From Candidatus Peribacteria bacterium (lineage in GTDB: Bacteria > Patescibacteriota > Gracilibacteria > UBA1369 > UBA12463): DNA of 52,398 nt. Below, piece after piece: positions 3,053 through 38,818 of the stretch. Under the pieces are notes generated by a model. That model was not told where the DNA came from. It searched no databases and saw only the letters and a program-made list of their open reading frames with translations. A program made the translations under genes and the position numbers. How positions within the stretch are numbered: position 1 is the stretch's first letter; each line of letters opens with the position of its first letter. The stretch is from the NCBI GenBank assembly GCA_943349045.1, contig CALQZC010000002.1:1-52398 (forward strand), written 5' to 3'.

Positions 3053-3850
3053 ATGAATATTAGTCACAAAACCCCGAAAGACATTGAGGCCATGCGGGAA
3101 GGAGGTGCCATTTTGGGACAGATTCTTCTCGACCTTGCGCGGATCGTTGAGCCTGGCATGACGACGATGCAGCTCGACACCAAGGCACGAGAACTGATGA
3201 AAAAATATGGTACACAGCCTTCCTTTCTCGGATACCGAGGTTTTCCAAGTGTCATCTGTACCGCTATCAACGAAGAGGTCGTCCACACCTTTCCCAGCGA
3301 GCGAGTCCTGCAGGATGGAGATCTTTTGAAAATCGACGGCGGAGTCTATCACAAAGGCTTCCATACCGACTCGGCCATCGCGGTCCCGGTGGGCCCGCTC
3401 GGCCGCGCCTCCGATACTATAAAAAAGCTCATCAAAACCGCGGAAATAGCGCTCAGTTCCGCCATCGACCTCGTCCGTCCAGACCTCCCCGTCCGTAAAA
3501 TATCAAGGATCATTCAGGAGGTCATCGAACGCAACGGCTACTCGGTTATTCGAGAGCTTTCCGGTCACGGCATCGGCAAGATGCTCCACGAAGACCCCTC
3601 GATTACCAACTACGAGGCGGACGCACCAAACTTCAATCTGAAAGCAGGCATGACGATCGCCATCGAGCCTATCTTCTGCGCCGGCAAGCCGGGGGTCAAA
3701 ACCATGGAAGATGGTTGGAATATTATCACCAAAGATCGCTCTTTTGCCGTCCAAGTCGAGCATACGATGCTCATCACCGAAACTGGCGTCGAAGTTCTCA
3801 CTCGCCGTACCGACCTCGATCCGCTGTATCCGACCCTCCTTCAAGGCTAA
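3053..3850 (+). CDS. map: Methionine aminopeptidase type I
   Basis: 265-aa ORF with MetAP blocks (LLKIDGGVYHKGFHTDSA, SGHGIGK.LHE, IAIEP, QVEHT). It has the canonical position after adk. Confidence 0.95.
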   Translation: MNISHKTPKDIEAMREGGAILGQILLDLARIVEPGMTTMQLDTKARELMKKYGTQPSFLGYRGFPSVICTAINEEVVHTFPSERVLQDGDLLKIDGGVYHKGFHTDSAIAVPVGPLGRASDTIKKLIKTAEIALSSAIDLVRPDLPVRKISRIIQEVIERNGYSVIRELSGHGIGKMLHEDPSITNYEADAPNFNLKAGMTIAIEPIFCAGKPGVKTMEDGWNIITKDRSFAVQVEHTMLITETGVEVLTRRTDLDPLYPTLLQG

Positions 3851-3927
3851 AAACCTCACTATATCCCTCAAAAAACTGGACAAAAACCCAGCTTCACGCA
3901 TATTGGGAAAAATACATTAAAATTTTC

Positions 3928-3956
3928 TTGCAATGCGAAATTCTATAGTGTAGAAT
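3928..3956 (+). promoter_or_regulatory. Candidate sigma70-type promoter for infA-rpmJ-rpsM
   Basis: TTGCAA (3928-3933), a 17-nt spacer, then TAGAAT (3951-3956). It lies about 45 nt upstream of the infA ATG in a 148-nt gap. Confidence 0.4.
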
Positions 3957-3998
3957 CCACTCGCTTTTTGTCCGTAAATCAGTGTTTTTCCCTAGATT

Positions 3999-4247
3999 AT
4001 GAGCAAAGAGGACAACTATATGGAAGTTCAGGGAGTCGTTGTTGAAACGCTACCGAACGCCCAGTTCAAGGTCAAAATTACTGGCCCAGCAACTCTACCG
4101 CAACCGTTCATTGGAAAGATCGTCCTCGCGCACATCGCCGGAAAAATGAAGATGCATTTCATCCGCATTCTCGAAGGTGACACCGTCACGATGGACTTAA
4201 GTCTCTACGATTACAACAGAGCCCGAATTACCTTCCGTAACAAATAA
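3999..4247 (+). CDS. infA: Translation initiation factor IF-1
   Basis: 82-aa S1-like OB fold ([16 protein letters not shown]...[19 protein letters not shown]...ITFR). It carries an insertion of about 10 aa ([13 protein letters not shown]) relative to the usual 72-aa IF-1. Confidence 0.9.
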
Positions 4248-4248
4248 T

Positions 4249-4362
4249 ATGAAAGTACGATCATCCGTTAAGCCAATCTGCATTAAGTGCAAAATCATCC
4301 GAAGAAAAGGTGTCATTCGCGTGATCTGTGAAACCAAGAAACACAAACAACGACAAGGATAA
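4249..4362 (+). CDS. rpmJ: 50S ribosomal protein L36
   Basis: 37-aa [40 protein letters not shown], too short for the ORF track. It has the zinc-ribbon C..C...C..H pattern and sits between infA and rpsM. Confidence 0.9.
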
Positions 4363-4364
4363 CA

Positions 4365-4393
4365 GACAAGCGTAGCTTGTCCTCCCCGCTCCC
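4365..4393 (+). repeat. Post-stop hairpin plus pyrimidine tract, copy A
   Basis: GACAAGC-GTA-GCTTGTC (7-bp stem, 3-nt loop) followed by CTCCCCGCTCCC. It starts 3 nt after the rpmJ stop. A near-identical copy lies at 9172-9203. Confidence 0.5.
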
Positions 4394-4419
4394 ACTAATT
4401 ACTCAGTAAGAAAATTCAT

Positions 4420-4794
4420 ATGGCACGTATCTCCGGAGTAAATCTTCCAAAAGAAAAGCGCGTAGAAATCGGTCTCACGTATATATACGGAATCGGAAAA
4501 GCAACGTCGACAAAAATTCTCAAAGACATGAACATCGACCTTGATAAAAAGGTTCAAGATCTTTCTGAAGAAGAGGTTAATAAACTTCGTGAAAAAATCG
4601 CCAAACTTCAGACAGAAGGTGATCTTCGTCGTAAAACCCAGATGGATATCAAGCATCTCGTTGATACCGGTACCTATCGTGGTTTCCGTCATCGAAGAGG
4701 CTTACCGGTCCGTGGACAGGGCACACGAAAGAATGCTCGAACTCGAAAGGGTAAGAAGAAGACAGTGGCAAACAAGAAGGTCGTAACTAAGTAA
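4420..4794 (+). CDS. rpsM: 30S ribosomal protein S13
   Basis: [24 protein letters not shown]...[20 protein letters not shown]. Confidence 0.95.
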
Positions 4795-4814
4795 TCTTAA
4801 CTCTCCCCGATCAC

Positions 4815-5276
4815 ATGGCAGAAAAGGAATTAAAAGCAAATAACACACCGAAGCGAAGCGAAGGTGCCGAACCCGTACCCGCAACGGCTGAAAAGGTGAA
4901 GGTAAAAAAGCCTAAGGGCAAGCGAAAAAGCGTTCCAGAAGGACACTTCTACGTTCACGCAGGATATAACAACACACTCATCAGCATCGCTGAACCAAGT
5001 GGTAATGTCATTGCATGGGCAAGTTCTGGCTCATGTGGATTCAAGGGAGCTCGAAAAGCAACTCCATACGCCGCTCAGGTGGCTGCAGAAACAGCATCAG
5101 AAAAAGCAAAGGCCTATGGACTTGAGCGTGTTCATGTCTTCGTAAAGGGCGGCGGCCCTGGTCGTGAACAGGCGCTTCGTGGTGTGATTCTCGCTGGAAT
5201 CTCCATCGAGTCGATCACTGATCAGACTGGCATTCCACACAACGGATGCCGAAAACCACGACATCGACGAGTCTAA
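4815..5276 (+). CDS. rpsK: 30S ribosomal protein S11 with an N-terminal extension of about 30 aa
   Basis: Core motif GHFYVHAGYNNTLISIAEPSGNVIAWASSG..GFKGARK.TPYAAQ, preceded by a Lys/Pro/Ala-rich tail. Confidence 0.93.
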   Translation: MAEKELKANNTPKRSEGAEPVPATAEKVKVKKPKGKRKSVPEGHFYVHAGYNNTLISIAEPSGNVIAWASSGSCGFKGARKATPYAAQVAAETASEKAKAYGLERVHVFVKGGGPGREQALRGVILAGISIESITDQTGIPHNGCRKPRHRRV

Positions 5277-8614: not shown

Positions 8615-9172
8615 ATGAAAAAACTCACCACCCTCCTCCTCACCGGCGTTCTCGCCCTCTCGCTCGCAGGCTGCTCAACACCAAGCACGCCACCAGCACA
8701 AAACATCCCGAACCCACCCGTAGCCCTAACCACCACCGATACCACCGTCTACGCCATCAAACTCAACGATAATGGCACATCATTAAACAGTGTTCAGGTG
8801 GGCTGTGGAGATAGTGCTATGCCCGTTCAAATGACGGCACCGAACGCCTACGATGATACCGATCCCGTAGCATCGATCAATGCCGCAATGATGACGCTGC
8901 TCAGCACCACGGCAACATCGTTCAATACCCAGGGGTATCAGAATCCTCTGAGCAATCAAGCAATGGTGATTCAGTCGGTCACACAAAGTGGAACCAACTA
9001 CACCGTTAAACTGAATGGAAGCTTCACCTTTGGTGGTGTCTGTGATATGCCACGTGTGCGTGCACAGGTCGAAGAAACCATTAAAAAGGCAGCCCTCACC
9101 GGAAACACTTTTACGATCGACTGGAATAGTGGCGGACAGGCAGCCTGGAACGCGGCATTCAGCCAGCAGTAG
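8615..9172 (+). CDS. Hypothetical lipoprotein
   Basis: The signal peptide ends in the lipobox LSLAGC|S (MKKLTTLLLTGVLALSLAGCSTP). I recognise no family for the mature part. Confidence 0.75.
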   Translation: MKKLTTLLLTGVLALSLAGCSTPSTPPAQNIPNPPVALTTTDTTVYAIKLNDNGTSLNSVQVGCGDSAMPVQMTAPNAYDDTDPVASINAAMMTLLSTTATSFNTQGYQNPLSNQAMVIQSVTQSGTNYTVKLNGSFTFGGVCDMPRVRAQVEETIKKAALTGNTFTIDWNSGGQAAWNAAFSQQ

Positions 9173-9920: not shown

Positions 9921-10850
9921 CTAAATTTCCAAAATATTGCCAGTATCCTCAAGCATCTGGTGACTCTCTTGAACTGTTTGCGGACGTGCAAGAGGATCAT
10001 ATGCCGTACTCGCAAAAGCAAAATTCAAAATAGCTCGTACCGTTCGACGAGACGAGCCAGGAAGGGTTGGAAGAAAATATTTCTCAAGACGGGAAAAAGC
10101 ATCTGGTCGAAAGAGGCGATTTTCAATATTCGCCCGAAAGAGCGCATGAGCTGAGTAATCTTTATCATAAACATTCCAAGGAACCGAAAATATATATTGC
10201 AAAATATCATAGGGTAAAAGTGAAAAAGCCGTCATGCCAAGACCATATCCATCAAGAGTAGAACTCGTATATCCTTGGACCTGTTCAGGAGCCATATGTT
10301 GAACGGTACCCTGGCAATACTCATCACGCTTTCCGGTGACTCGAGTCAAAAAATCGCTATCAATAATGAAAACATTTTCCGGAACAAGGGGCTGTGTAGG
10401 ATGAGCAAGAATGAGATTCTCAGGTTTAATATCACGATGAGTAATACCCGCAGATCGTAACGTATTGAGATGCACTGAAACCGCCTTGAGAAGAGATCGA
10501 ATCTGATCCATCGTAAAGGAAATATTTGACATCACATCACATAAATCTGTACCAGGCACATAATCGGCAACAGCGATGTGATCATCGACATGTCGAAATG
10601 GAGCAATGTGAGCATGTTGTAGTGCTGTTGGCTCCTGCTGAGCCAGCTCAAAAGAGTCCTGTACACAGCTCCAGAGCATAGAAGCCATAGGATCGGACGA
10701 TTTACTTTCTTTCACAACAACTGGCCTGCCATCCGGATCAACACCCAAAAAGACATTGAATTTTGTTCCACCCTTGAGAGTTTTCTGAAGGGTAACAGAT
10801 TCACTCCCTGCGCTGATAACTTGTTCGCCAAATTGTAAACCGGTAAGCAT
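9921..10850 (-). CDS. Eukaryotic-like (Hanks-type) Ser/Thr protein kinase, catalytic domain only
   Basis: Catalytic loop ITHRDIKPENLIL, an APE motif (GTVQHMAPEQ), a beta3-Lys candidate (RPVVVKES), and DFG replaced by DSDFL. I chose ATG 10850 (MLTGLQFGEQ). The longer ORF-track version running to 11330 overlaps the oppositely oriented gene and is low-complexity. Confidence 0.8.
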   Translation of the reverse strand: MLTGLQFGEQVISAGSESVTLQKTLKGGTKFNVFLGVDPDGRPVVVKESKSSDPMASMLWSCVQDSFELAQQEPTALQHAHIAPFRHVDDHIAVADYVPGTDLCDVMSNISFTMDQIRSLLKAVSVHLNTLRSAGITHRDIKPENLILAHPTQPLVPENVFIIDSDFLTRVTGKRDEYCQGTVQHMAPEQVQGYTSSTLDGYGLGMTAFSLLPYDILQYIFSVPWNVYDKDYSAHALFRANIENRLFRPDAFSRLEKYFLPTLPGSSRRTVRAILNFAFASTAYDPLARPQTVQESHQMLEDTGNILEI

Positions 10851-10908
10851 AACTATGCTATAGAGTAAAAAAGTAATTATGTCAATAAAGGAAGCTAATA
10901 ACAACCCA

Positions 10909-10937
10909 TTGATCTCAAGAAGCAAAGCTCGTACACT
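10909..10937 (+). promoter_or_regulatory. Candidate promoter for the coiled-coil/ATPase operon
   Basis: TTGATC (10909-10914), a 17-nt spacer, then TACACT (10932-10937), about 25 nt before ATG 10963. Confidence 0.3.
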
Positions 10938-10962
10938 TGAGCAAAGATCATATCCCCTCAAT

Positions 10963-12459
10963 ATGCAAAACTTCACACAACGCATCATCGCTCTGGTAGC
11001 GATACTCACACTCACGGTTGGAACCGCGCAGCTCTTAGCGGTGAATAACGTGGCAAATGCTATCCAACAGGTAAATCCCTCGAAGGTGGCGATTGCAAAG
11101 AAAACCGCAACAGGGAAAAATGGATCAGGTGGTCCAATGTCAAAAGAGGCGGCGGGAGTAAAATCAGCGGCAGTAAGTTCAGAGGCAAAAGGAAAAACTG
11201 GAACAAAATCTAACGAAAAAATAGACAAAGAGGTAAAAAAGAGTGAAAAAGCTCTCAAAAAAGTTGAAAAGGAGGCCAAAAAGGAGGCGACAGCCATCGT
11301 CCTTCCAAAACTCATTAAATATTTGGACAATAATGTTCCCCAGCCACTCGTGGATGCCTATAAAGGAACAACGCTGAAAAATACGGTACAAGACGTCACA
11401 TCATCCCTGAATAAAATGGTCCTCGAGGGAAATATCAGCGACACCAAAGTGGAAGGTGTCTTGCGAGATGTTTTTTCCACGGCACTCTCAGACACCAATA
11501 GTTTCGCCGGTGAACTCCTTACAAAACACAGCCTCCAAAACATCGCGACCACGATTCTCCAAAATCCAAAAGACCTCGACGCACTGAAAAAAACCGTCGA
11601 AGACGAGATCAAGGCCTACGCAGAACAGGAGCTCAATAAACTGGCCAATCAAGCCATTGGAACGCTCTTTCCAATCATGCAGGGAATCGAGTTTGATTTC
11701 GCAAAAATGAACAAGGATACTTTCAAAGCAACATTGCGAAGTGCGATCATCAATGCGCTCGCACAAAGCTACCTTGGCCCGGGATATGCTGTTGCCTACA
11801 TGGCCGTCGCCACCATCTGTCCACCGTGCATGGAAAAAGTGCACGCCGAACTTCGACGATTTGATAAAAAATACCTTCAGCCTGGCACCGAAAAAATTGG
11901 TGAGGAGTGGAATAGATTTGCTGACAAAGTAAGCGAGGAGAGTAATCGTGTAAAAAAACAGATCTCTGCAGAGTATGAGCGATTGAAAAAGAGAGTTTCT
12001 GCGGAAGCACAGCGACAAAAAGAAGATGTTGAGGCAGAGGCAAAACGGGCGGGAAAACAGATCAACGAGCAGTTCGAAAAGGCAAAGAATTCGAAAGTTG
12101 GCAAGGAAGTGGAGCGGGAATTCAATGATGTGATCGCCGCACACAGCCTGATCGCAGAAAAAGCCGTCGCTGAGTTTAATCGGGAAGCACAGGACGCGCT
12201 CGATGAGGCCAAAAGAGTAAGTGTTCGAATGAGTAAGGAGCTCGAACGAGAAGTAAAACAGCACATAAACATGGTAAAAAACGCAGGGAGTGCGGCGAAA
12301 AAAGAGCTCCAAAAAGAGGCAAAACAACTCACGAATGAGGCACAGCGACTGAAAGATAAGATTGCCGAAGAGCTCAAGCGTGCTGAAGATAAAGTAAAGG
12401 CGGAAGCCAACCGATTAAAAAAGAAGATAAAGAAGGCGAAGAAAAAACTGGGATTGTAG
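10963..12459 (+). CDS. Signal-anchored Lys/Glu-rich coiled-coil protein, unknown function
   Basis: MQNFTQRIIALVAILTLTVGTAQLLA is a hydrophobic N-terminus. It is followed by a Lys-rich spacer, a globular middle region and about 170 aa of charged heptad-like repeats at the C-terminus. The alternative start at 10879 would add 28 polar residues. Confidence 0.7.
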   Translation: MQNFTQRIIALVAILTLTVGTAQLLAVNNVANAIQQVNPSKVAIAKKTATGKNGSGGPMSKEAAGVKSAAVSSEAKGKTGTKSNEKIDKEVKKSEKALKKVEKEAKKEATAIVLPKLIKYLDNNVPQPLVDAYKGTTLKNTVQDVTSSLNKMVLEGNISDTKVEGVLRDVFSTALSDTNSFAGELLTKHSLQNIATTILQNPKDLDALKKTVEDEIKAYAEQELNKLANQAIGTLFPIMQGIEFDFAKMNKDTFKATLRSAIINALAQSYLGPGYAVAYMAVATICPPCMEKVHAELRRFDKKYLQPGTEKIGEEWNRFADKVSEESNRVKKQISAEYERLKKRVSAEAQRQKEDVEAEAKRAGKQINEQFEKAKNSKVGKEVEREFNDVIAAHSLIAEKAVAEFNREAQDALDEAKRVSVRMSKELEREVKQHINMVKNAGSAAKKELQKEAKQLTNEAQRLKDKIAEELKRAEDKVKAEANRLKKKIKKAKKKLGL

Positions 12460-18003: not shown

Positions 18004-18648
18004 TTAGAGCCCCATCTTCGCCGCCCAACCCTCCGGGTCCGACTTATACTCGAGAATTTTTGCGTACTGATCGGCATCAATCATGCCACGTTCGCGAGCC
18101 ACATCCAGAAGCGTCTCGAAGTCAGTGAGAACATGAAGCTCCACACCTCCCTCATCGAGCGCCTGGTACATCTTCTCAAATCCATAGGTAAAGATTGCCA
18201 AGAGATGCACAACGTGAGCACCGCCTTCTCCGCGAAGGGCCGCAACCGTCCCAAGCGAACTCCCGCCAGTTGTCACAAGATCCTCAACCACCACGACCTC
18301 TCGGCCAGCCGGAAGTGACCCCTCAATCTGTTTACCAGTCCCGTGGTCCTTTGGTTTTGGACGAACATAAATCATCGGCATATCCGTTCGATCAGCGAGA
18401 ATCGCCGCCCACGGAATACCCGCAGTCGCCGTTCCAGAAAAATAAACCTCTCCAGTCAGGCCTAAACTCTTCCATAACTGCCGCAACCCCTCAGCAACCA
18501 AGTCTCGCTCCTTAACAAGGGACACCAAAACACGGTTATCGGTATAAATAGGTGCACGCATCCCAGACGAGTAGGTAAACGGTGGATCAAAGCTGATTTT
18601 CACCGCCTTGGCGTCGAGCAGAAGTCCAGCAATCTCACGAGCGTTCAT
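18004..18648 (-). CDS. pyrE: Orotate phosphoribosyltransferase
   Basis: PRPP-binding motif VVVVEDLVTTGGS and FTYSSGMRAPIYTDNR. I chose ATG 18648 (MNAREIAG). Confidence 0.9.
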   Translation of the reverse strand: MNAREIAGLLLDAKAVKISFDPPFTYSSGMRAPIYTDNRVLVSLVKERDLVAEGLRQLWKSLGLTGEVYFSGTATAGIPWAAILADRTDMPMIYVRPKPKDHGTGKQIEGSLPAGREVVVVEDLVTTGGSSLGTVAALRGEGGAHVVHLLAIFTYGFEKMYQALDEGGVELHVLTDFETLLDVARERGMIDADQYAKILEYKSDPEGWAAKMGL

Positions 18649-18761
18649 AGAGAGATAGGATAATAGGCTACCTGGCCGAGTATAGCGAACCCGCACCATA
18701 CTTGTAAATACCAGCGAAAAGTGGTATAATGAGATCAAATAAAATTTTAACCAAAACAAAC

Positions 18762-19046
18762 ATGAAGGCCTCAGCCCTTTCACGTCAGTCCCCCTTCGTT
18801 TATTTCTGGCTTGGTATGCTCACCGGCATTCTGCTCGTGATCGGTTCATTCATGATCCGTTCAATGGCAGACGAAGGCGCAACCTCAATTTTCCGTTCAG
18901 GTCGGGCAGTTCAAAATATGGCCCCAAGCGCAGCTCGAAGTATGGAAGCTCCGAATATGGTAAATTCACAAACAAACAGCATCAACAACCCTGACATGAA
19001 GGTTGGCATCAACAACCCTGACATGAAGGTTGGCAAGGGATATTAA
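18762..19046 (+). CDS. Small membrane protein containing a tandem 9-aa repeat
   Basis: One TM segment (FVYFWLGMLTGILLVIGSF). The C-terminus has INNPDMKVG repeated twice. The alternative start is at 18729. Confidence 0.5.
   Translation: MKASALSRQSPFVYFWLGMLTGILLVIGSFMIRSMADEGATSIFRSGRAVQNMAPSAARSMEAPNMVNSQTNSINNPDMKVGINNPDMKVGKGY
18981..19034 (+). repeat. Perfect 27-bp tandem duplication
   Basis: ATCAACAACCCTGACATGAAGGTTGGC occurs at 18981-19007 and again at 19008-19034. Confidence 0.95.
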
Positions 19047-19058: not shown

Positions 19059-22000
19059 CTAGACCTTTTTCGTAGGAAAGAGACTCTTCACCCGCCGATC
19101 TGCAATAGCAAGATCAGCAATCTTCTGCTCCAGAACCGCTGCATATTGAGGAATATTTGTCTTCAATGTCGGCGGTTCTTGATCGTTCTTACCGTGAAGG
19201 TAGGAAACCAGGCCATCTTCATTGATCAACTGTGCTGCCTCGGTAGCAAGAGCCGGAATGGCACTGGCAAATGAAGCTTTTGAAGGATCTGTTGAGAGAA
19301 CGATGTCCAGAAGTTGTGGATATTGTTCTAGGCGAGACATATGTCTCATAAGACGCGCAAGGAATGGGGCAATATAGAAAGACCAGTACTCGTCGGGATT
19401 ACCCTGGGCATCAAGTGCACGATGATCATCTAAAAAAGAGGTTGTCTGATTTGGTCCGATCTCAGTTATACGACGTACCGTATCTCCAATAAAATAGTTG
19501 CATTGAGAAGTAGGGGAAAGAGAACTCGGATCATCAACTGAATTTCCATGAAATGTTGCTGCCTCGGCTACGGTAGAAAGCGCGCTCAATAAATTAACAA
19601 GGGCGACATCATGGTAAGACTTATGGAGGGGACTTCCACCGGAATTGGCAAGGTTTTTGAATGTCGTAGCAGCAAGACTTGAGTAGTGCGCCGCCCATTG
19701 GAGAATAAAGTATGAGGCAGTTGGCACAGGTATATTATTCTCATATGCTGAGAGAGTAGCACCCGGCTCATTACGCTCGATAAGTCGTGCAACCTGAGAA
19801 ATCTGTTCACGAACAGAAGGATCATTGGTTGTCTGATAATATTGAATAAGTTTAGGAAGCACGGAGCTCATGGAACTCAATGTATCAGCATAGCGTTCAG
19901 TATCTCCATATTTAATACAATCGCTTCGAGCATCAAAAAAGTACTGCATGGATGACATAAAATTCCCCAAACGTCCTTCTATAACACCAAGTGATTTGCG
20001 GGAACGATAGAGCTGGGTACGGTCTGGAACCAGTTCAGGACGAGTGCGCGCAACATCAAAGAACTTAAGATAATGCTTACGTGACTGAAGAAGATTTGCA
20101 TGCAATGAATTATCTGAAGACAGAGCAGCGAAATCGGCAGCATCATCATCTCCATAGGCAATATAGCCCTTATCATATCCATCTCCACCCGGAGCAATAA
20201 CGAGGTTCCATCCCATGTGAAAAGCGCTCGCAAAAATACGGTTCCCCTCGAGATCGACGCGCTGAAATCGAATATCATTGGCAAACTCTGGAAATGCTTT
20301 CAAGAGGCTATCTCGATTATTCGTATAGGTATCAGCATGATCATCGCACGCCTGCGCATATCGACGCATGAGGTATTCTCCGCGTAACTTATTGAACTTC
20401 GCCTTGAGATCCATAAAATCACGCTCCCCCGGAGAAAAAACCTGCTTTGCATCATCCGATAAATACTCGGCCATTCCCTTACCCCATTCATCGAGTTTTG
20501 ACACGCTCGCGAGACGCACCTTTTTATCAGAACCTCGAAGGAAGTAAAAATCGCACATGAGATCATGAAGACGTTCAATACATGCATAATCATCTTTTGC
20601 AAGCATCTGATCCTTGCCGAGACCAGCAGTTTTACCAGCATAAAAGTATCGTACTTTGTCACCAAGTGCCTCAATCTCCGTGGCATATACATTACGCTTT
20701 ACCTGCATACACTGGATAAGATCGAGCTGAAGACCAATATTTTTTCCAAAATTAAGCATCACGGGAGCCAGAGACGGCTCGCTCTTCATGTATTCATACA
20801 CCGAGAGGGCCACATCAAACTGACCGCGTGCGTAGGCATCCTTGAAGGCCTCAAGCACAAATTCTTTAACCATTTCAGGCACCTTAGCCTTGGTTGCCAT
20901 CGCATAGATAGCAAAGGGGGAACAGCGATCCAAAACAGCGAGAAAAGCATCGCGATTGGCAGCATTCTTCGGATCATCCAGATTATGTTTCAACGTATCG
21001 CGAGTGAAAAGCATATATCGCGCAATCTCTTTATAGGCCTCAGCCATCGGATTTTCCTGGGCTAGAGCCGGGTTACCAAAGATACCCTTCAAACGACGCT
21101 CATCAGCATCACGCGCAAATCCAATAGTAGCAGTAGGATGTATCTCCTCGGTACTATCAATTTTTTGAAGATTAAACACACCCTGCTTACACAACTGAGC
21201 AAAAACCATAATCAAATCAGGACGCTTCAAATGGGAACGGAAAAAATTAGCAAGAAACTGATACGTGCACTCGCCTGTTTCACGAAGGAACATGACATAC
21301 TGGAGCACCTCTCTTTGAAGAGGTTTCGTCAAAAGACGATCAACACGAGCTGCCGCCAACACGTCGGCTTCACCCATCGTTGTCCATGCAAAGAATCGAT
21401 CATCATAGGTCACATTTGAGTGTTTCACGGTGAGTACCCCCTCTTGAACCATACTATTAATCATCTCCGTCAAAAGACCCGGATTACCCTGAGCGCCACC
21501 GACAGCTTGCGCCAGACGCTCAAAGACAACCGCATCGATCGTTGTATGAGCTGGGTCAACCTTGAGGAGGCCATACACGAACGAAATGAAAAGTGGGGTT
21601 GGGACTCCATGCTTATCGAGAAATTCAAGAGGCTTAAGGGAAAGCTGACTGACATTCGGAGCACTCTGTAAAATTTGGAGAAGCTCTTGGTTCATCACCT
21701 GATCACCCGTTCGAGCCAAATTCAAAAGTGCCAAATGGCCGAGCTCACCCTGACCATCCTTGGCAAATGTCTGTTTCAAAAGATCGCACGACTCGCTATC
21801 CGCCCACTGCATATCATCCGTAACAATTAAAAAACGGCGACCGGATCTCTCTAATCGACGCAGCGCACGAGAAAGCATTTTTGGGCCCTCCTTGGCCAAT
21901 GTCGTCGCATCAAGAGCATCGAAGTTTTCGAGGGCCTTACAGCCATTGGGAAGTGGTGTATCGCCGGTAAAAACCTCTTGAGCCGCATGCAAAATCTGTT

Positions 22001-23102
22001 TTGCATAGGTTCGGAAAAATGAGAGAGAATCACCCATCCGGGTATCCTTCGCAGGAACGAAAATAATAAAAGGTGTATGTTTTGGAAGCGCCTCGACTTC
22101 TTGGTCAAACCGATCAAGGGTCTGTTTCAGGCTCTTCGGATGACTCATTGGATGATTAACAATGTAGTCTTCTTTACGTTGCGGAAGATCTTGAATCTGT
22201 TTTTGAATAGTCCGAATTGCCTTGATCATCTCCTCCGCCATTCTCGTCTTACCCATCATCGCATCACCATGCACCGTGAAACTCGAAAACATGGGCGCAT
22301 CCGCCCCCATAAATTTCGTCATCCAGTCAAGCATCCCCTTCATCTCGGTATCACGACCATACTGCTTCTCAGCACCACCAGCACGGAGTTCATTAATAAC
22401 TGATTTGAGTTCACTCAACACATAAACCGCTTTATCTCCGATGAGACCATGAGCTTTTACCTCTTTATGAACATAAATCGCGACACGAGGATGCTTCAGG
22501 AGGGAATAAAAAGTATCTGAAGTAACCACGCTCCCCGCCGTGCATCGCCGAAGCATTTGAGGAAGAGCAGCCAAAAATTTGGCATCAATAGGAGGAGTAC
22601 CACTCCCGCTCGAGTAGGTATCCAAATAAGCACGAGGGAGCGAGCAACCATGACGCTGTGAAAGTTCAGAAATCTCCGTATTTACATCAGCAAATGTGGA
22701 GGCGACACGTTCACCACTTCCATGAAAGAGCCAGAGAGACCCTCGACGTTCAACCTGAAGATGAAGCTTCTTAAAAATAGGAGCAACCTGATCTTCCGGA
22801 AGCTCGGTCTCAATACATCCCCGAGCCGCAGACGTAGAAGACATAACATCACGATGCTCCGACGCGGCCTTCGCCGCCCAAAGTTCCTCATCGCCAACGA
22901 GATCAAATGTCTCCATAGGAATAACGACCGGCAAAAAATCTTCCGGCGTTTTGCTCAGCATCGTCTCTGCTATAGGCTCCCCAGCATCTTCAAGCACATC
23001 AGCCGCCAGTCCCTCAGGAGGTAGTGGAATAACAGGTGCAAAACCAAGTTCAGCCGTCTCAGTCGCAGGTTCTGATGATGATGTCGGATCAACTACATTC
23101 AT
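19059..23102 (-). CDS. Large STAND/AAA_16-type NTPase with a degenerate class III cyclase-like N-domain and a long helical C-terminal region
   Basis: 1347 aa. It has Walker A GDAMMGKT (nt 22245-22268) and Walker B RFLIVTDDMQWADSES. Residues about 83-230 resemble a cyclase homology domain that lacks the metal-binding Asp residues. Confidence 0.7.
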   Translation of the reverse strand: MNVVDPTSSSEPATETAELGFAPVIPLPPEGLAADVLEDAGEPIAETMLSKTPEDFLPVVIPMETFDLVGDEELWAAKAASEHRDVMSSTSAARGCIETELPEDQVAPIFKKLHLQVERRGSLWLFHGSGERVASTFADVNTEISELSQRHGCSLPRAYLDTYSSGSGTPPIDAKFLAALPQMLRRCTAGSVVTSDTFYSLLKHPRVAIYVHKEVKAHGLIGDKAVYVLSELKSVINELRAGGAEKQYGRDTEMKGMLDWMTKFMGADAPMFSSFTVHGDAMMGKTRMAEEMIKAIRTIQKQIQDLPQRKEDYIVNHPMSHPKSLKQTLDRFDQEVEALPKHTPFIIFVPAKDTRMGDSLSFFRTYAKQILHAAQEVFTGDTPLPNGCKALENFDALDATTLAKEGPKMLSRALRRLERSGRRFLIVTDDMQWADSESCDLLKQTFAKDGQGELGHLALLNLARTGDQVMNQELLQILQSAPNVSQLSLKPLEFLDKHGVPTPLFISFVYGLLKVDPAHTTIDAVVFERLAQAVGGAQGNPGLLTEMINSMVQEGVLTVKHSNVTYDDRFFAWTTMGEADVLAAARVDRLLTKPLQREVLQYVMFLRETGECTYQFLANFFRSHLKRPDLIMVFAQLCKQGVFNLQKIDSTEEIHPTATIGFARDADERRLKGIFGNPALAQENPMAEAYKEIARYMLFTRDTLKHNLDDPKNAANRDAFLAVLDRCSPFAIYAMATKAKVPEMVKEFVLEAFKDAYARGQFDVALSVYEYMKSEPSLAPVMLNFGKNIGLQLDLIQCMQVKRNVYATEIEALGDKVRYFYAGKTAGLGKDQMLAKDDYACIERLHDLMCDFYFLRGSDKKVRLASVSKLDEWGKGMAEYLSDDAKQVFSPGERDFMDLKAKFNKLRGEYLMRRYAQACDDHADTYTNNRDSLLKAFPEFANDIRFQRVDLEGNRIFASAFHMGWNLVIAPGGDGYDKGYIAYGDDDAADFAALSSDNSLHANLLQSRKHYLKFFDVARTRPELVPDRTQLYRSRKSLGVIEGRLGNFMSSMQYFFDARSDCIKYGDTERYADTLSSMSSVLPKLIQYYQTTNDPSVREQISQVARLIERNEPGATLSAYENNIPVPTASYFILQWAAHYSSLAATTFKNLANSGGSPLHKSYHDVALVNLLSALSTVAEAATFHGNSVDDPSSLSPTSQCNYFIGDTVRRITEIGPNQTTSFLDDHRALDAQGNPDEYWSFYIAPFLARLMRHMSRLEQYPQLLDIVLSTDPSKASFASAIPALATEAAQLINEDGLVSYLHGKNDQEPPTLKTNIPQYAAVLEQKIADLAIADRRVKSLFPTKKV

Positions 23103-23253
23103 AACACGTCATCAATAAGGTAAAATAAAGCTAAGGAAGGAACTATACTATTTTTTATCAAAATAGCAAGGGTAAAAATAGGCATATCACCAAATTACAG
23201 CTTCAGTATGCTACTATAGTGAAAGATTTTTTTACTTTTTCACACTCCATCGT

Positions 23254-23775
23254 ATGCGGAAACAGGCTGTCATCTCTCTCGCAATTCTCAGTATTCTCGC
23301 TGCCGGCTTCGGCTGTGCCAAGGAAGCACCCGTTGCCGTTTCACCTACACCTGCTCCTGCAGTGACGCAAGATGCAACTCCAGCACCTGTTGTGACTCCA
23401 GTAGCGTCTGGCATGACCGTTGCGGACATCGGTGCAAAACTCACAAGCGCTGGACTCACCTTCACTGAAAAGGATGAAACTGAGGATGCAAAGGCACTTG
23501 CTTCCGGGAGTGCCGTAACCGTATCCACAAAATTCAAGGTAGTTGGCGGAAAAGGAACCGTTCGAGTCACCGTGATGGCACTCAACGATGTAAGTAAATC
23601 AGGAAGCATAAAGAGTGACGTCGAAGCGCAATGGGCAGCCGTAAAAAAGATCAGCAGCAAGATGAATATGCAGTTTGTGGATGTCGGTGCTGCAAACGTA
23701 CTCGTTGCGTTGAGCTACGAAAACGGCGACGAAGAAACCGCTGCAAAGGCAAAGTTGGCAGTAGCGAAAGAATAA
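23254..23775 (+). CDS. Hypothetical lipoprotein
   Basis: Lipobox LAAGFGC|A after MRKQAVISLAILSI, a Pro/Ala/Val/Thr linker, then a domain of about 120 aa with no recognised family. Confidence 0.7.
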   Translation: MRKQAVISLAILSILAAGFGCAKEAPVAVSPTPAPAVTQDATPAPVVTPVASGMTVADIGAKLTSAGLTFTEKDETEDAKALASGSAVTVSTKFKVVGGKGTVRVTVMALNDVSKSGSIKSDVEAQWAAVKKISSKMNMQFVDVGAANVLVALSYENGDEETAAKAKLAVAKE

Positions 23776-33852: not shown

Positions 33853-36066
33853 CTACCTCCCTATCGCCGGCATGACGACGGTATAGACGTTGCTCGCGTT
33901 CCAGAAAACGAAGCCGTCCCCTTGTGCATCCCGAGCGGCACGAATCTGCTGATACATGTAGTCGCTATTGTATGGGATGGTCACCCGATAGGTGAAACCC
34001 TGTAGCCACGGACGGATGGTCGTCTCAGTTCCACGAGCATACTTCACGAAATTATCATTCGTCTCTTTATTGAAATAGTAAGGCTCATCAGCGGGGTTAT
34101 TGTGTCCACCAAATCCCGGACCAAAATGGGAAGGATATCCCATCGGATAGATCGTATCAAGATACGGCGCGATACATTCAATCCTCTGACCAAGCGTCTT
34201 ATAGTTCGGAGCGGGCTGCCAGCCAACGATGCCAAATACATCCGCACTCAATTTCACACCCATCGGAAATGTCTGTCGCCGAGCCTCTTTCAAGAAATCA
34301 CGGATCACCTCCCACTTCTGTTTTTTCGCCGGATCATACTTGAATCTCGCCGCACCAATATTTCCCTCCGTTGGAAATCGTACGTAATCAAATTGCACCT
34401 CGTCAACTCCCATTGCAGCGGCCTCCTTGGCCATATCGATGGCATACTGCACGACATCAGGATTCGAAGGATCGAGCCACACATAACCAGCCCGATCACG
34501 CCACACGCCCCCTCCCGCATTCTGAATCGCCATATCAGGCCGAACCCGAGCAATCTTCTTTTCTTTAAACGCCACCACACGTGCCACCACAAATATATTC
34601 TTTGATTTCAAGTACTCAATAAACGGCTTCATATCTCGCAACACCGAGTTCTCCCCGCCAGCCTTATACTTCAACGCCCCATCGGATTCATCGAGATCAA
34701 AGACGACCATATTCCCACCCGAAGCGATCAATTTCTCAACGAGCACTTTGCCATTATTACCAAGCGCCGTGGAGGCGGTAATATAAATGCCCCGAAAAAA
34801 CGACACACCACTGGCCGAATCGACCATCGACTTCAAAAACTTCGGCCCTTCCGTAAAATATTTCCAGCTAAACTGAAGATGCTCAGGAAGCATCGCCCCA
34901 TCCCGTTTATAGGAAATATAGGTATCAGCATCGGGATCCTTACAAGCATCATACGGATACACCTCCCGCGGTTTTTTCATCGGAACCACCTCCATTTTCT
35001 TCTCGATCTTTTGAACTTTCTCTTCAATTTTCTCTTCAACTTTCTCCACGCTCGCCGCAACCTGCTCAACTTTTTCCAACATCACACCATCCCACACCTT
35101 CGCCACAACACCAGCACGCAAACGATCCTTCACCAAAATTTTCTCATCGGCAACCGCTGCAACCGCAACCACATCCGGATTTCCATCGCTCACATACGGA
35201 GCAAAAATTTCACTTCCCAATTTTTTCCCCGTCTCACCCTTCTTCCTTTTGAACCATCGACTCCACTCATCATCAATCGCCTGGATTCTCGGAACTCGCA
35301 TCGCGTCAAACTTCGCATGATACGGCGACCACGAAGGCTCCGCACCCACCAGCAAACCAAGTCTGAATTTTTTCTTCATCACCTCATATCCAGCACCCTT
35401 CGGCACTCCGCCAAACGGATAGGCGATGCTATCAAGAGTATGTGAACCAAGATCAAATTTCTTCAGATAATCCTCAAGCTGCTGGACTTTTCCAGCAACC
35501 GCCGCAGGAGCAATCAACGACAGATTCGAGTGATCAATCGTATGATTTCCGAGCTCACGACCCGTCTTCAAAAGATACTTCAGCGCCTCGCCCGTCTTCT
35601 CCGTCAGCTTAAAAGGATTCTGATTCACATAAAAAATCGCCGCCGACCCAAAGTCGGGATACTCCACGAGAAACTGATCCATAATGCCAACGGCCGTATA
35701 CGGATCAACCTTCCCATCTTTCATCAAGAGTTGCGTATACCCACCATCATCAAATGTAAACACGACCGGCTTTTTCCCAAACGGAACCCGAATCGTCTGA
35801 TTCAAAAAGTCCTGCGTTGAGATCGCCCGATAATCGTTATTATAGAGCCACTCAAGATCCTTCCGAAACTGCTCAAACGAGCGCGTCCATCGATCTTCTT
35901 TCGGCCCAACTTGGTGGTACTCCAAAAAAGGAATCCGTCCCATCTCGTTCGGGGTAAGGGCTACGGGCGACACAACAGGTGCGGATTTCACCGCAGCCAC
36001 CGCCACCGGAATCATAGAAAAAAGAACACTGCACACCATCACCGAAGAAAGAAGTCGTTTGATCAT
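33853..36066 (-). CDS. Secreted CE4 polysaccharide deacetylase fused to a TIM-barrel glycoside-hydrolase-like (DUF4015-type) domain
   Basis: Signal peptide, NodB motifs FTFDDGG and GNHTIDH, a charged linker (EKVEEKIEEKVQKIEKK), then GGNMVVFDLDESDG...VDEVQFDYVRFP. Confidence 0.75.
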   Translation of the reverse strand: MIKRLLSSVMVCSVLFSMIPVAVAAVKSAPVVSPVALTPNEMGRIPFLEYHQVGPKEDRWTRSFEQFRKDLEWLYNNDYRAISTQDFLNQTIRVPFGKKPVVFTFDDGGYTQLLMKDGKVDPYTAVGIMDQFLVEYPDFGSAAIFYVNQNPFKLTEKTGEALKYLLKTGRELGNHTIDHSNLSLIAPAAVAGKVQQLEDYLKKFDLGSHTLDSIAYPFGGVPKGAGYEVMKKKFRLGLLVGAEPSWSPYHAKFDAMRVPRIQAIDDEWSRWFKRKKGETGKKLGSEIFAPYVSDGNPDVVAVAAVADEKILVKDRLRAGVVAKVWDGVMLEKVEQVAASVEKVEEKIEEKVQKIEKKMEVVPMKKPREVYPYDACKDPDADTYISYKRDGAMLPEHLQFSWKYFTEGPKFLKSMVDSASGVSFFRGIYITASTALGNNGKVLVEKLIASGGNMVVFDLDESDGALKYKAGGENSVLRDMKPFIEYLKSKNIFVVARVVAFKEKKIARVRPDMAIQNAGGGVWRDRAGYVWLDPSNPDVVQYAIDMAKEAAAMGVDEVQFDYVRFPTEGNIGAARFKYDPAKKQKWEVIRDFLKEARRQTFPMGVKLSADVFGIVGWQPAPNYKTLGQRIECIAPYLDTIYPMGYPSHFGPGFGGHNNPADEPYYFNKETNDNFVKYARGTETTIRPWLQGFTYRVTIPYNSDYMYQQIRAARDAQGDGFVFWNASNVYTVVMPAIGR

Positions 36067-36720: not shown

Positions 36721-38727
36721 TTAGTCCATCTTGAGTGCCTTCTTGATCCGATATACCAATGCGGCGATTTCTGCACGGGTCAAAGGCACATCAGGACCAA
36801 CCTTTCCATTTACCATCTCAAAAATTTCAAAAGAAGGATCTGTCTTCTTGAGATCAAGAAGCTGAACGATCCACTCAGCAGCCTCTCCACGCGTAATTTT
36901 TCGTGCGCCACCAAACTGATTTTTCGGGAAGAATGTCGCAGGAATTCCGGCCGGAAGTTGATAGGCATATTGAGAAAACCATGCCGTCGCAGGAACATCG
37001 GTGAAGATCATTTTTGCATCCTTCAGGGTTTTCTTTGCTGGACCAAAGGTTCGAACGAGAATCGAGGCGAACTCAGCACGTCGAATATGAAGATCAGGAC
37101 GGAAGAAGCTTTCTCCATTTTCAGTAAATCCACGAATAACATCCTGCTGAGTCATGACGCTAATCGCCGGAAACGCCCAGTGCTCAGGCGTCAGATCCTT
37201 ATAATAATTCACCCGCAACTTCGAGTGCACGAGACGCTCTTGAAGTTTTTTCACATCAATATTACGAGGTTGTTTTTTCTCAAGAGAGGCCATCGCCGCA
37301 GCCGCACCAGCAGCCTGTCCAATCGAGGCGGCAATCGGCTGAAGACGCGTTCGTCCATTCGCAATATGAGACACGGAAATATTTTTCTCAGCCCCAATCA
37401 AGCCATCAACTTTCTGAGGGATAAGTGCCGAATAAGGCACCTGGAATGGAGGGTAAACGAGAAAAAGATCATTAGCGCCACGCTCACACGAGTGAATATC
37501 GAGCGGATAATCACCCACGGCAACCGCATCATCCCAGAAGCGCATCTCACCGAGCGAATCTGGTATGACATCAGCCTCAGTAATGCGTGTCACACCTCGT
37601 AAACGTCGACTCTCGCGAACGTAAGGAATGAGCGCAAGACCATCATCCGTTCCAAACTCATTACTCAACGCATACGTATTTTTTCCCAACTCAGTCTGGA
37701 AATAACGAATAATACCAAGCGAATTCTTCCGAGCTAGTGCGATAACCTCCTCTCGTGCAAGAGGATCGTATTCCGAGCGATCAACATCAAAGTCATTACC
37801 ATATGAGTGAGTCGGGATATTCACCATGACCTTTCCATTTGGAAGTTGACCATAGCTCTTCAAAAATTCCCAGTCGCGGAACTCCGTCGAAGAGTCTGGA
37901 CACTTGCTATTCGGAATCGTACAGAAGTACCTCGTTGGATCGTAATCATCCGGCGCAGGCACGGGTACCTGAACTTTGCCAGTATCTTTAATAATGGCGG
38001 TCACAGTAATTGGCTGCACGCAGTCTTTTGTTTTTCTCGCATGCTCTTCTTTCGAGTCAAGATCAACGCCAAGATCAAAAGGAACATCACCTAAATACAG
38101 TACGTCTCCCAACTCCGTAGCCTCAACCGTCACCGGGGCACGGAAGGTAATATCTTTTCCATTCTGTTCGGCCACGATACCCTCAATCACATTCCCCGTT
38201 CTCAGAACACGCTTCAACTTTGCGTTTAGGTAGAGATTAATATTTGACTCCTGGGCAACCATACCTTTCAAAACCGTATGTCCCACACTCGGCTCAAAAC
38301 AAAACGGCGCAAGACAAAGTTCGGTCTGCCAGATCTTCACCCCATACGATTTTTTCACCTTCTGAACGAATTCGCCGAGTAGTCCGGTATAGTTCCAGGA
38401 ATTTCCATCCATTGAAGAAACACCCGCAGCCGTAATCATGCCACCAATCCACGCAGTTGGTTCAACTAAACATGTCTTCGCGCCATCACGTGCCGACTGA
38501 AGTGCAGCAAACGTTCCACCCGTTCCAGCCCCAACGACCAATACATCGCACGACACCACCGAGCCAGATGAGCTGTTTCCACTTCCAGGACCGCCACTCT
38601 GTTTGAAGGCCAGGAGTTGTTTATCCACAAAAAATGCACCCTTAAAAAAATCTGAACTGCCAAGAACCACAGCTATAACCGCGATAAGCACTACTCCGAC
38701 GACTCCGTATATAGTTTTGTGATTCAT
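36721..38727 (-). CDS. Membrane-anchored FAD-dependent oxidoreductase-like protein with C-terminal SLH-like repeats
   Basis: N-terminal TM segment and a dinucleotide-binding motif VLVVGAGTGGTFAAL. The C-terminus has SLH-like segments (RAEFASILVRTFG, FTDVPATAWF, ITRGEAAEWIV, LTRAEIAALVY). I chose ATG 38727 because the ORF-track N-terminus reads through the tRNA. Confidence 0.7.
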   Translation of the reverse strand: MNHKTIYGVVGVVLIAVIAVVLGSSDFFKGAFFVDKQLLAFKQSGGPGSGNSSSGSVVSCDVLVVGAGTGGTFAALQSARDGAKTCLVEPTAWIGGMITAAGVSSMDGNSWNYTGLLGEFVQKVKKSYGVKIWQTELCLAPFCFEPSVGHTVLKGMVAQESNINLYLNAKLKRVLRTGNVIEGIVAEQNGKDITFRAPVTVEATELGDVLYLGDVPFDLGVDLDSKEEHARKTKDCVQPITVTAIIKDTGKVQVPVPAPDDYDPTRYFCTIPNSKCPDSSTEFRDWEFLKSYGQLPNGKVMVNIPTHSYGNDFDVDRSEYDPLAREEVIALARKNSLGIIRYFQTELGKNTYALSNEFGTDDGLALIPYVRESRRLRGVTRITEADVIPDSLGEMRFWDDAVAVGDYPLDIHSCERGANDLFLVYPPFQVPYSALIPQKVDGLIGAEKNISVSHIANGRTRLQPIAASIGQAAGAAAAMASLEKKQPRNIDVKKLQERLVHSKLRVNYYKDLTPEHWAFPAISVMTQQDVIRGFTENGESFFRPDLHIRRAEFASILVRTFGPAKKTLKDAKMIFTDVPATAWFSQYAYQLPAGIPATFFPKNQFGGARKITRGEAAEWIVQLLDLKKTDPSFEIFEMVNGKVGPDVPLTRAEIAALVYRIKKALKMD

Positions 38728-38742
38728 ACAATCATAGAATAA

Positions 38743-38818
38743 TGGTGCGCCCGGCAGGATTCGAACCTGCGGCCCCCAGCTCCGCAAGCTGATGCTCTAT
38801 CCCCTGAGCTACGAGCGC
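38743..38818 (-). tRNA. tRNA-Arg (anticodon GCG), CCA encoded
   Basis: A 76-nt canonical cloverleaf on the minus strand: GCGCTCG TA GCTC AGGGGATA GAGC A TCAGC TTGCGGA GCTGG GGGCC GCAGG TTCGAAT CCTGC CGGGCGC A CCA. Confidence 0.9.

Follow-up and report, generated by a model that had tools for sequence, protein, structure and literature searches.

We analysed a 52,398-nt stretch of DNA from Candidatus Peribacteria (contig CALQZC010000002.1, assembly GCA_943349045.1), referred to here as the window. An open reading frame (ORF) at positions 19059-23102 on the minus strand, with an ATG start and a TAG stop, encodes a protein of 1347 amino acids (aa) in which a cyclase-like N-terminal domain precedes a STAND nucleoside triphosphatase (NTPase) and a long helical solenoid. 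This gene, called the STAND gene below, lies tail to tail with a small gene encoding a single-pass membrane protein. The two genes, and the domains and motifs of the STAND protein (to which all residue numbers refer), are as follows.

19059..23102 (stop codon included), minus strand: STAND gene, predicted pseudo-cyclase / AAA_16 NTPase / TPR-like solenoid, 1347 aa (ORF list, translation)
22839..23102, minus strand: residues 1-88, acidic, proline-rich disordered tail (composition, predicted local distance difference test (pLDDT) scores, alignment A1)
22398..22838, minus strand: residues 89-235, predicted degenerate class III cyclase homology domain (AlphaFold2 (AF2), Foldseek, BLASTP, TIGR03903, catalytic columns)
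22362..22397, minus strand: residues 236-247, near-invariant linker I-N-E-L-R-A-G-G-A-E-K-Q (alignment A1)
21333..22361, minus strand: residues 248-590, AAA_16 nucleotide-binding oligomerisation domain (NOD) (PF13191, Foldseek, alignment with the L020 protein)
22245..22268, minus strand: Walker A, G279-D-A-M-M-G-K-T286 (translation)
21813..21830, minus strand: Walker B, L425-I-V-T-D-D430, followed by MQWAD (translation)
21117..21323, minus strand: residues ~594-662, predicted winged-helix domain (AF2: three helices and a beta hairpin)
19062..21098, minus strand: residues ~669-1347, predicted all-alpha TPR-like solenoid, putative sensor (AF2, Foldseek)
18762..19046, plus strand: partner gene, predicted 94-aa bitopic membrane protein, convergent with the STAND gene, the two stop codons lying 12 bp apart (translation)
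18979..19035, plus strand: perfect 27-bp x 2.1 tandem DNA repeat coding the peptide units of the partner protein (Tandem Repeats Finder, 100% matches, score 114)

A search among 5.8 billion clusters yielded eight other relatives of the 1347-aa protein, with identities of 29-64%. All of the metagenome-assembled genomes that carry them are labelled Peregrinibacteria, Peribacteria or Gracilibacteria, and AAA_16 is present in every relative. Two clades can be told apart by identity to the window protein: the close clade A (50-64%) and the distant clade B (29-31%). Alignment A1 and all statements below on invariance and on alignment columns of the STAND protein refer to these nine members, the window protein included. 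A metagenome scan with the family motifs gave no new family members, only distant kinase- or cyclase-fused AAA_16 proteins.

The ATPase core and the C-terminal half

A Pfam scan of the whole protein at E<=1 returned AAA_16 (PF13191) as the sole family, at 38.5 bits against a gathering cut-off of 32.6 over residues 248-451, and no cyclase, TPR, NB-ARC/NACHT or helix-turn-helix (HTH) model. The YGRDTEM stretch (residues 248-254) coincides with position 3 of the PF13191 profile. It was found that G279, G284, K285 and T286 of Walker A and D429 and D430 of Walker B are invariant in 9/9 members; the wider Walker B stretch, RFLIVTDDMQWADSES, comprises residues 423-438. The GNPGLL (GxP) motif of the AAA_16 domain aligned by BLASTP with GGNPLF of a metagenomic protein, L020, which is described below. 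When the modelled NTPase part was searched against the PDB with Foldseek, the matches were the NLR resistosome subunits NRC3/NRC2, ORC/Cdc6 and TnsC. In clade A, a helical hairpin insert of ~50 aa follows directly on the Walker A helix (residues ~297-345, nt about 22068-22214); it is missing in clade B. The linker that leads into this domain has low pLDDT in the AF2 model and follows the pattern I-N-x-x-R-A-G-G-A-E across the family, and a GG-P-D/K form of it was seen in the distant L032 and L034 proteins.

The C-terminal half was modelled separately (AF2 model 2, residues 590-1347), with a pLDDT of 81.7 and a predicted template modelling score of 0.70. Apart from the winged helix, the C-terminal ~750 aa are predicted to be entirely helical, and the solenoid runs unbroken to the end of the protein. 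Foldseek matched the solenoid only to generic TPR and alpha-solenoid proteins (LGN/Pins, Ctr9, IFIT1 and OGT, E 1e-3 to 1e-2), a likeness that extends to peptide-binding TPR superhelices such as LGN/Pins. Neither a TPR nor an HTH was detected by Pfam (E<=1), and the model contains no HTH, the chain ending in long solenoid helices.

Because AAA_16 scores above its cut-off, the Walker motifs are invariant, the structural matches are to NLR, ORC/Cdc6 and TnsC proteins, and the protein has both a GxP motif and a winged helix, its assignment to the STAND (AAA_16) NTPases, with an intact P-loop, is strongly supported; oligomerisation in response to ligand and nucleoside triphosphate is only presumed. 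An earlier note on this DNA, made from the sequence alone, had placed both Walker motifs and YGRDTEM, named the protein an AAA_16/STAND ATPase and described helical, repeat-like sequence behind the ATPase. The translation bears out the positions, the PF13191 score and the NLR and ORC matches bear out the class, and the helical sequence became an all-alpha solenoid to which a winged helix is to be added.

The N-terminal domain

The first 80 residues, which the earlier note had rightly called an acidic N-terminus, contain 17 D/E, 2 K/R and 10 P. The modelled part of this tail (residues 60-89) has a pLDDT of about 30. A T-A-E-L-G-F motif is common to the window protein and clade B, and I-P-x-P-P-x-G is found across clade A; such short linear motifs may be docking motifs.

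AF2 model 1 covered residues 60-660 and was built on a multiple sequence alignment of nine sequences; its mean pLDDT was 74.9, and the means across the five models were 62-75. Within it, residues ~92-234 form a compact alpha/beta domain with a pLDDT of 80-90. The predicted order of elements, beta-alpha-beta-beta-alpha-beta and then alpha-beta-alpha-beta-beta, is the topology of class III cyclases. When the PDB was searched with this domain by Foldseek, over 25 chains of class III cyclases matched at E 1e-4 to 1e-3 and probability 1.00, with target-normalised template modelling scores of 0.55-0.64 and root-mean-square deviations of 3.8-4.5 A over ~165 columns at 7-13% identity. The matched structures included Ma1120, Rv1900c, Cya2, Rv1264 and soluble and rhodopsin guanylyl cyclases.

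Sequence profiles gave a different result. PF00211 had no match at E<=1 with the whole protein or at E<=10 with the N-domains of the nine members. A profile of the N-domain (residues 60-246) matched nothing in Pfam at E<=10, and nothing useful was obtained from PDB sequences with it, with the whole protein or with profiles of residues 60-660 and 590-1347. Against 1.84 billion representatives, the N-domain profile retrieved the family itself alone, plus P0011, an 840-aa low-complexity repeat protein (E 5e-8, four short stretches) that we rejected as a relative because the match was judged to be repeat-driven. The hhalign comparison of the N-domain with cyclases gave probabilities of 3.6-7.7%, and these stayed at or below 7.7% with an N-domain profile enlarged by L032, P0010 and L013 and a cyclase profile enlarged by L020 and L023; MAFFT misaligned L032. 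A home-made hidden Markov model (HMM) of the cyclase domain scored at most 5 bits.

A link to cyclases at the sequence level was provided by a metagenomic protein of 1090 aa (L020:4353-7625), in which Pfam recognises a Zn-ribbon, Guanylate_cyc, AAA_16 and TPR. BLASTP aligned this protein collinearly with window residues 182-606 (E 3e-9); from its start within cyclase helix alpha4, the alignment takes in the linker, both Walker motifs (Walker B as DDMQWAD) and the GNP motif. Furthermore, the NCBIfam model TIGR03903 matched residues 180-302 at 27.7 bits (E 5.8e-7), which is far under its cut-off of 705.75. The hhalign, home-made HMM and TIGR03903 alignments all place residues ~175-230 in one register, none of them being significant alone.

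The assignment as a cyclase homology domain is thus based on the predicted structure and on the collinear match of its last third, with no significant profile match, and on these grounds we are highly confident, short of certain, that the domain is a cyclase homology domain. An alternative is that the likeness is an artefact of AlphaFold on a shallow alignment and that the N-domain is a novel alpha/beta domain, as an alignment of only nine sequences, the spread of the five-model means and the silence of the profiles could suggest. However, the pLDDT of the domain itself is high, many independent cyclase structures match it at probability 1.00, three independent sequence methods agree in laying residues ~180-230 on the last third of a cyclase domain directly before AAA_16, and the order of domains is that of true cyclase-AAA_16-TPR proteins; we therefore regard an artefact as quite unlikely. 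Descent from the widespread cyclase-AAA_16-TPR signalling proteins is strongly supported. As a matter of method, a cyclase call that the earlier note had made by eye was missed by every sequence profile and recovered by structure prediction: AF2, Foldseek and the collinear BLASTP alignment of the last third speak for it, and PF00211 and hhalign do not.

Loss of catalytic residues

We read the catalytic positions of class III cyclases from the alignments and the model. The second metal-binding Asp (IGD, in the beta2-beta3 turn) is replaced in the sequence R-R-G-S122, and the family column reads S/K/A/S/S/S/N/N/T. The first metal-binding Asp, at the end of beta1, corresponds to Glu98 in the structural register (column E/N/D/Q/H/Q/S/S/S); in an alternative register, shifted by two residues, it corresponds to Glu100 (column E/D/D/D/D/D/E/T/T). 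In helix alpha4, the transition-state Asn position is Ala178 (column A/S/T/H/T/A/D/R/R) and the transition-state Arg position is Gln182 (column Q/H/Q/H/H/H/E/S/S), a register on which the hhalign, BLASTP and HMM alignments agree. The position of the substrate-specifying Lys is occupied by Glu118, and the beta4-beta5 purine-binding arm is shortened in the AF2 model. A comparable loss is seen by eye, with no scored alignment, in the distant L032 protein, which has IMKL for FADI, SGSS for IGDA and VKHAID for VNxAxR and keeps the G-E-R motif. In the family itself, the invariant residues of the domain include T99, L101, W124, E131-R132 and H204-P-R-V207.

Since no catalytic position is conserved in the family, the domain is best described as a pseudo-cyclase: it is strongly supported, from residues and model, that the fold has been kept while the metal-binding, substrate-specifying and transition-state residues have been lost, so that canonical cyclic-nucleotide synthesis would not be expected. 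The invariant residues that the domain has of its own suggest that it is maintained for another role. The term pseudo-cyclase, which the earlier note had used, thus fits Glu98, Ser122, Ala178 and Gln182. Its more specific statement, that both metal-binding Asp are Ser, Thr or Gly, is correct for the second site (Ser122) and incorrect for the first, where Glu98 is acidic yet not conserved.

A rival reading is that of a still-active, non-canonical cyclase. Its product would act on or through the membrane partner, in a Pycsar/Pucsar-like arrangement on a STAND chassis, and cyclases paired with transmembrane effectors are known in defence (10.64898/2026.08.12.744502). The retained fold, which is under purifying selection, and the Glu at both candidate first-metal positions of the window protein are compatible with activity. 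Nevertheless, no member retains the second metal Asp, the Asn or the Arg, the residue at the first site is not conserved, and the model shows a shortened purine-binding arm. Neither a cyclic-nucleotide-binding domain nor any other Pfam domain is present in the partner, and the pair differs from Pycsar in lacking both the catalytic residues and an effector domain of that kind. We consider residual cyclase activity very unlikely.

Inactive cyclase-fold domains that may act as binding or scaffold modules have precedents. Inactive cyclic nucleoside monophosphate (cNMP) cyclase domains occur in NTPase-centred (vWA-MoxR) conflict systems, in a paper that also describes AP-ATPase+TPR proteins coupled to peptide-processing systems (PMC7159879), and AdvA of Acinetobacter carries a catalytically dead cyclase-fold domain (PMC13060281). 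By analogy, the loss of catalytic sites and the presumed use for binding or scaffolding would be the same here; unlike the AdvA and vWA-MoxR domains, to which it has no detectable sequence relationship, the present domain is fused to a STAND NTPase.

The small membrane partner protein

The partner homologues at the clade A and clade B loci are ~90-118 aa long and consist of a short basic N-terminus, one hydrophobic helix and a tail with tandem peptide units. In the window, the N-terminal 12-mer of the partner is MKASALSRQSPF and its tail ends in two copies of INNPDMKVG. The helix follows F-V-Y-F-W-L-G-x-L-T-G-A-L-I, with an invariant GxxxG. A profile of eight proteins defined a family of ~30 clusters, all from the same candidate phylum, whose members have 2-7 tandem I-x-x-P-x-x repeats, some distant members being without repeats. 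The units in relatives include IINPDMKT x5, IGTPGM x3-5, ISTPGT x4, INPPGM x3 and ITNPQT x5-7; further motifs are ITDPQT, ITTPQT, INVPTS, INPPQF, IGSPDGN and IGGPMPPG, and the units are separated by short, often basic spacers. P0013, the closest relative, has five units compared to two in the window, and the copy number therefore looks dynamic. No Pfam, NCBIfam or PADLOC match was found for the partner.

The net charge summed over 28 members is +72 before the helix and -1 in the 15 residues after it. By the positive-inside rule, this bias predicts an N-in/C-out orientation, which would place the repeats outside the cell. The length of the helix (~20 residues), its invariant GxxxG and a conservation stronger than that of the tail favour a retained membrane anchor; on the same three grounds, a cleaved signal peptide was set aside as the preferred reading. 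Cleavage may still take place, as an S-x-A site follows the helix.

A promoter-like site precedes the partner gene, and the pyrE ORF as listed (18004-18783, minus strand, 259 aa from GTG) overlaps both the start of the partner gene and this site. The ORF is probably over-extended, its orthologues being 214 aa long.

18702..18730, plus strand: promoter-like site 5' of the partner gene, TTGTAA-17-TATAAT with extended TG (consensus scan 10/12, consensus match only)

Conserved pairing of the two genes

In the window the gene order is pyrF, pyrE, small transmembrane (TM) gene, STAND, lipoprotein gene, pyrC. At the clade A loci (window, L002, L003, L007 and L009) pyrE-pyrF lie downstream, and most also have the lipoprotein gene and pyrC upstream; the clade B loci L001 and L013 lie between smpB/nadE and unrelated genes. 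The sole neighbour kept in both clades is the small gene convergent with the STAND gene, which is present at all seven of these loci, each of them found via the STAND protein.

Five distant members were looked up with the small protein as the only guide, and in 5/5 of these an adjacent, convergent gene encodes an AAA_16 protein of 1223-1502 aa, one of the five copies being truncated by the contig end. The distances between the small gene and the AAA_16 gene at these loci are as follows.

L027: 30 bp
L028: 26 bp
L030: 4 bp
L032: 8 bp
L034: 4-nt overlap

The pairing of the small gene with a large AAA_16 protein was thus found at 12/12 loci with enough flank. The distant STAND proteins have diverged far, to an identity with the window protein of 20% at most: that of L032 is 20% identical to it over residues 193-795 (BLASTP, E 2e-6), that of L030 could not be aligned to it by BLASTP, and the family HMM scored these partners weakly. 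In L034, the small gene lies between two pseudo-cyclase/AAA_16 paralogues, 3-773(-) and 1184-5191(-), of which one is convergent and complete and the other is represented on the contig only by its N-terminal 257 aa; both share T-x-E-R and I-G-G-P-D linker motifs. The STAND gene and the small membrane protein gene therefore form a conserved tail-to-tail two-gene module, a conclusion that is strongly supported.

The lipoprotein gene on the other side of the STAND gene behaves differently.

23254..23775, plus strand: lipoprotein gene, 173 aa, divergent from the STAND gene; signal peptide ending in lipobox-like ...AAGFGC (translation)

Its orthologues were found only in L002, L007 and L009. It was rejected as a conserved third component because it is absent in L003 and L032 and because no relationship exists between the lipoproteins of clade A and those of clade B (BLASTP E=16); it had no PADLOC, NCBIfam or Pfam match. 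The earlier note had placed the STAND gene between pyrE and pyrC together with two small envelope proteins. The order is correct, and the small TM gene, which lies beside a STAND gene at all 12 loci, shows the co-occurrence with a flanking envelope gene that the note had looked to; the lipoprotein is clade-specific.

The same note had described the gene as inserted in the pyrimidine cluster. In L032 the order is pyrB-pyrC-pyrD, STAND, small gene, pyrE-x-pyrF, which makes long-standing synteny within one lineage a better reading of the pyr-cluster position than a recent insertion. The pair is outside the pyr cluster, in unrelated contexts, in L001, L013, L028, L030 and L034, and because this neighbourhood is not conserved beyond two lineages, a functional tie to pyrimidine synthesis is unlikely. 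These observations bear on whether the protein could be a MalT/LAL-type transcription regulator of the flanking pyrimidine genes. The STAND gene is indeed flanked by pyrE and pyrC in the window, L002 and L007 and, in L032, by pyrE and pyrD, and an ATPase-TPR core is common to Rv0386-type and LAL proteins. However, no HTH was found by Pfam or in the model, the relatives at five loci are elsewhere, and the conserved neighbour is a small membrane protein rather than a pyr gene. We regard such regulation as extremely improbable.

A role in anti-phage defence, as in Avs proteins, was also weighed. The solenoid would recognise a phage protein, the NTPase would oligomerise, and the membrane protein or the pseudo-cyclase would be the abortive-infection effector. 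The combination of a STAND NOD with a C-terminal helical-repeat sensor is common to Avs/NLR-like proteins and the window protein, which also matched the NRC2/NRC3 resistosome subunits, and both genes diverge fast. NTP-dependent conflict systems are known to include inactive cyclase domains (PMC7159879). The neighbours of the clade-B-like L028 copy are HigB/HTH, NTP_transf_2/HepT and Fic genes (L028 2038-6938 and 13272-14288), and this setting, rich in toxin-antitoxin genes, is unlike that of the other loci. Set against this, the defence-system search proposed in the earlier note was negative, no PADLOC-DB model matching the STAND protein, the small TM protein or the lipoprotein at E<=0.01, and zero relatives were found in 2.9 million viral contigs. 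The pyr-cluster position that the window clade has in common with L032, at 20% identity, suggests vertical descent rather than a mobile island. The GC content of the STAND gene region (window ~47%, uniform) does not deviate from its surroundings. The partner, single-pass with a short predicted extracellular tail, would be an atypical pore-former, and no nuclease, protease, TIR or other toxic effector domain was recognised in the STAND protein, which in contrast to Avs appears to be vertically inherited and in a core-genome position. Defence is therefore an unlikely explanation of the pair.

Other features of the window

The window is a core chromosomal stretch with ribosomal protein genes, secY, adk, map, rpoA, trmD, a P-type ATPase gene and rsmA, and it also carries pyrF, pyrE, pyrC, pyrB, carA and uvrB. 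Genetic code 25 was considered for it and dismissed: TGA ends 3/30 confident genes and is a genuine though rare stop, and the standard code therefore applies. The 'Candidatus Gracilibacteria' labels of some close relatives may, we suspect, stand for class-level taxonomy and not for code-25 organisms. A consensus scan gave a promoter-like site for the STAND gene.

23142..23169, minus strand: promoter-like site 5' of the STAND gene, TTGCTA-16-TATAGT (consensus scan 9/12, consensus match only)

Two further ORFs on the minus strand are envelope-related: 36721-38787 encodes a FAD-dependent oxidoreductase fused to an S-layer-homology domain, and 33853-36066 a DUF4015 glycosyl-hydrolase-like protein fused to a polysaccharide deacetylase. 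A Ser/Thr protein kinase of 469 aa (9921-11330, minus strand) adjoins trmD and the P-type ATPase gene; the arrangement is syntenic, the kinase being present there in L002 as well. Four ORFs had no Pfam family at E<=0.001: 38866-41214(-), 782 aa; 46021-47211(+), 396 aa; 43851-44699(-), 282 aa; and 8615-9172(+), 185 aa.

Discussion

Taken together, these results are best explained by a STAND protein with a pseudo-cyclase domain that is paired with a surface repeat protein as a signalling module, a reading that we hold to be slightly more probable than not. The likeliest mechanism is one in which the TPR-like solenoid would hold the NTPase off until a cue from the partner binds. The cue might be the short conserved cytoplasmic N-terminus of the partner, next to the GxxxG helix, or it might be peptides that are released from the repeat tail and re-imported. 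Nucleotide exchange would then drive oligomerisation, as in other STAND proteins, and the clustered pseudo-cyclase domains would be a dimerising or scaffolding output that recruits a downstream factor, and not an enzyme.

Several points weigh against this interpretation. The cyclase domain is detected by no sequence profile (hhalign probability at most 7.7%), and the N-terminal half of the residue mapping consequently depends on a model from nine sequences. We infer catalytic inactivity from residues, and the first-metal register is uncertain, the window protein having Glu at both candidates, 98 and 100. The tie between the STAND protein and its partner is one of genetic linkage, with the repeats predicted to be outside the cell and the STAND protein to be cytoplasmic, and no output partner was identified. 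Lastly, all loci are in one candidate phylum and belong to few deep lineages, and the 12 loci are therefore not 12 independent events.

The closest known relatives in architecture are the cyclase-AAA_16-TPR proteins (L020 and the Rv0386/Rv1358/Rv2488c type), which have the same order of cyclase domain, GR-x-x-E linker, AAA_16 with DDMQWAD, GxP and helical repeats. The window protein differs from them in that its catalytic residues are replaced, its cyclase domain is invisible to PF00211, its TPRs are not detectable by Pfam, its N-terminus is acidic and disordered, and it has an obligate small membrane-protein neighbour. Rv0386-type proteins carry a LuxR HTH. The window protein has none at its C-terminus, and the earlier note's description of an Rv0386-like domain order lacking this element agrees with Pfam, the model and the comparison with L020. 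A survey of the mycobacterial cyclases is available (PMC2447327). TIGR03903, a TOMM kinase/cyclase fusion, is similar as a large cyclase/ATPase/repeat protein with the weak local match over the cyclase-ATPase junction. It is named for its association with TOMM (modified-peptide natural-product) systems. Unlike it, the window protein has no kinase domain, its neighbour is not an NHLP- or Nif11-type precursor, and no modification enzymes lie nearby.

The juxtaposition of a putative cytoplasmic helical-repeat receptor with a small, predicted-exported repeat protein is analogous, in logic only, to the RNPP receptor/pro-peptide pairs (Rap-Phr, PlcR-PapR and NprR-NprX) and to pheromone precursors with tandem cores such as yeast alpha-factor. 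It differs from the RNPP pairs in that the receptor would be a STAND NTPase without an HTH and that the partner helix is a conserved GxxxG TM helix and not a typical signal peptide. This analogy suggests a bolder and more tentative possibility, which we think rather less likely than not to be correct: that the pair is a hitherto unknown peptide signalling system of Peregrinibacteria, acting from the cell surface to the cytoplasm as a STAND analogue of RNPP quorum sensing. The small protein would then be a tandem-core precursor or a bitopic receptor, the STAND protein would be the cognate cytoplasmic receptor or transducer, and the dead cyclase domain would have been re-used as an oligomerisation-dependent output. 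The units (ITNPQT, ITDPQT, IGTPGM, ISTPGT, INPPGM, INNPDM, INVPTS and others) would diversify like pherotypes. If this were true, it would be a case of STAND-based signalling in a lineage in which cell-cell or symbiont-host communication is essentially uncharted.

Part of what we describe is already known. The cyclase-AAA_16-TPR architecture is widespread (for example L020 and TIGR03903) and pseudo-cyclase domains exist elsewhere; what can count as novel is thereby reduced to the degenerate domain and the pairing of the genes. The earlier note had offered the protein as an undescribed module, which is justified for a sequence-orphan family with eight relatives in 5.8 billion clusters and not for the architecture. 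What is new is a sequence-orphan family restricted to Peregrinibacteria, a STAND chassis on which catalytic residues have been lost across the whole family and, above all, the conserved pairing with a small-protein family that bears diversifying tandem peptide units.

Bacteria of the candidate phyla radiation (CPR) are uncultured and have tiny genomes that are full of unannotated genes. In these organisms, a 4-kb gene and a dedicated 0.3-kb partner have been kept in the core genome across very deep divergence, and the pair therefore likely matters for their biology. The STAND protein provides a clear case of a signalling enzyme domain that, by its residues, appears to have become a pseudo-enzyme on a STAND chassis, and its partner defines a new family of small proteins in which a GxxxG anchor is combined with tandem I-x-x-P-x-x repeats. 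Concrete experiments thereby become possible on how CPR organisms may sense their surface environment or each other.

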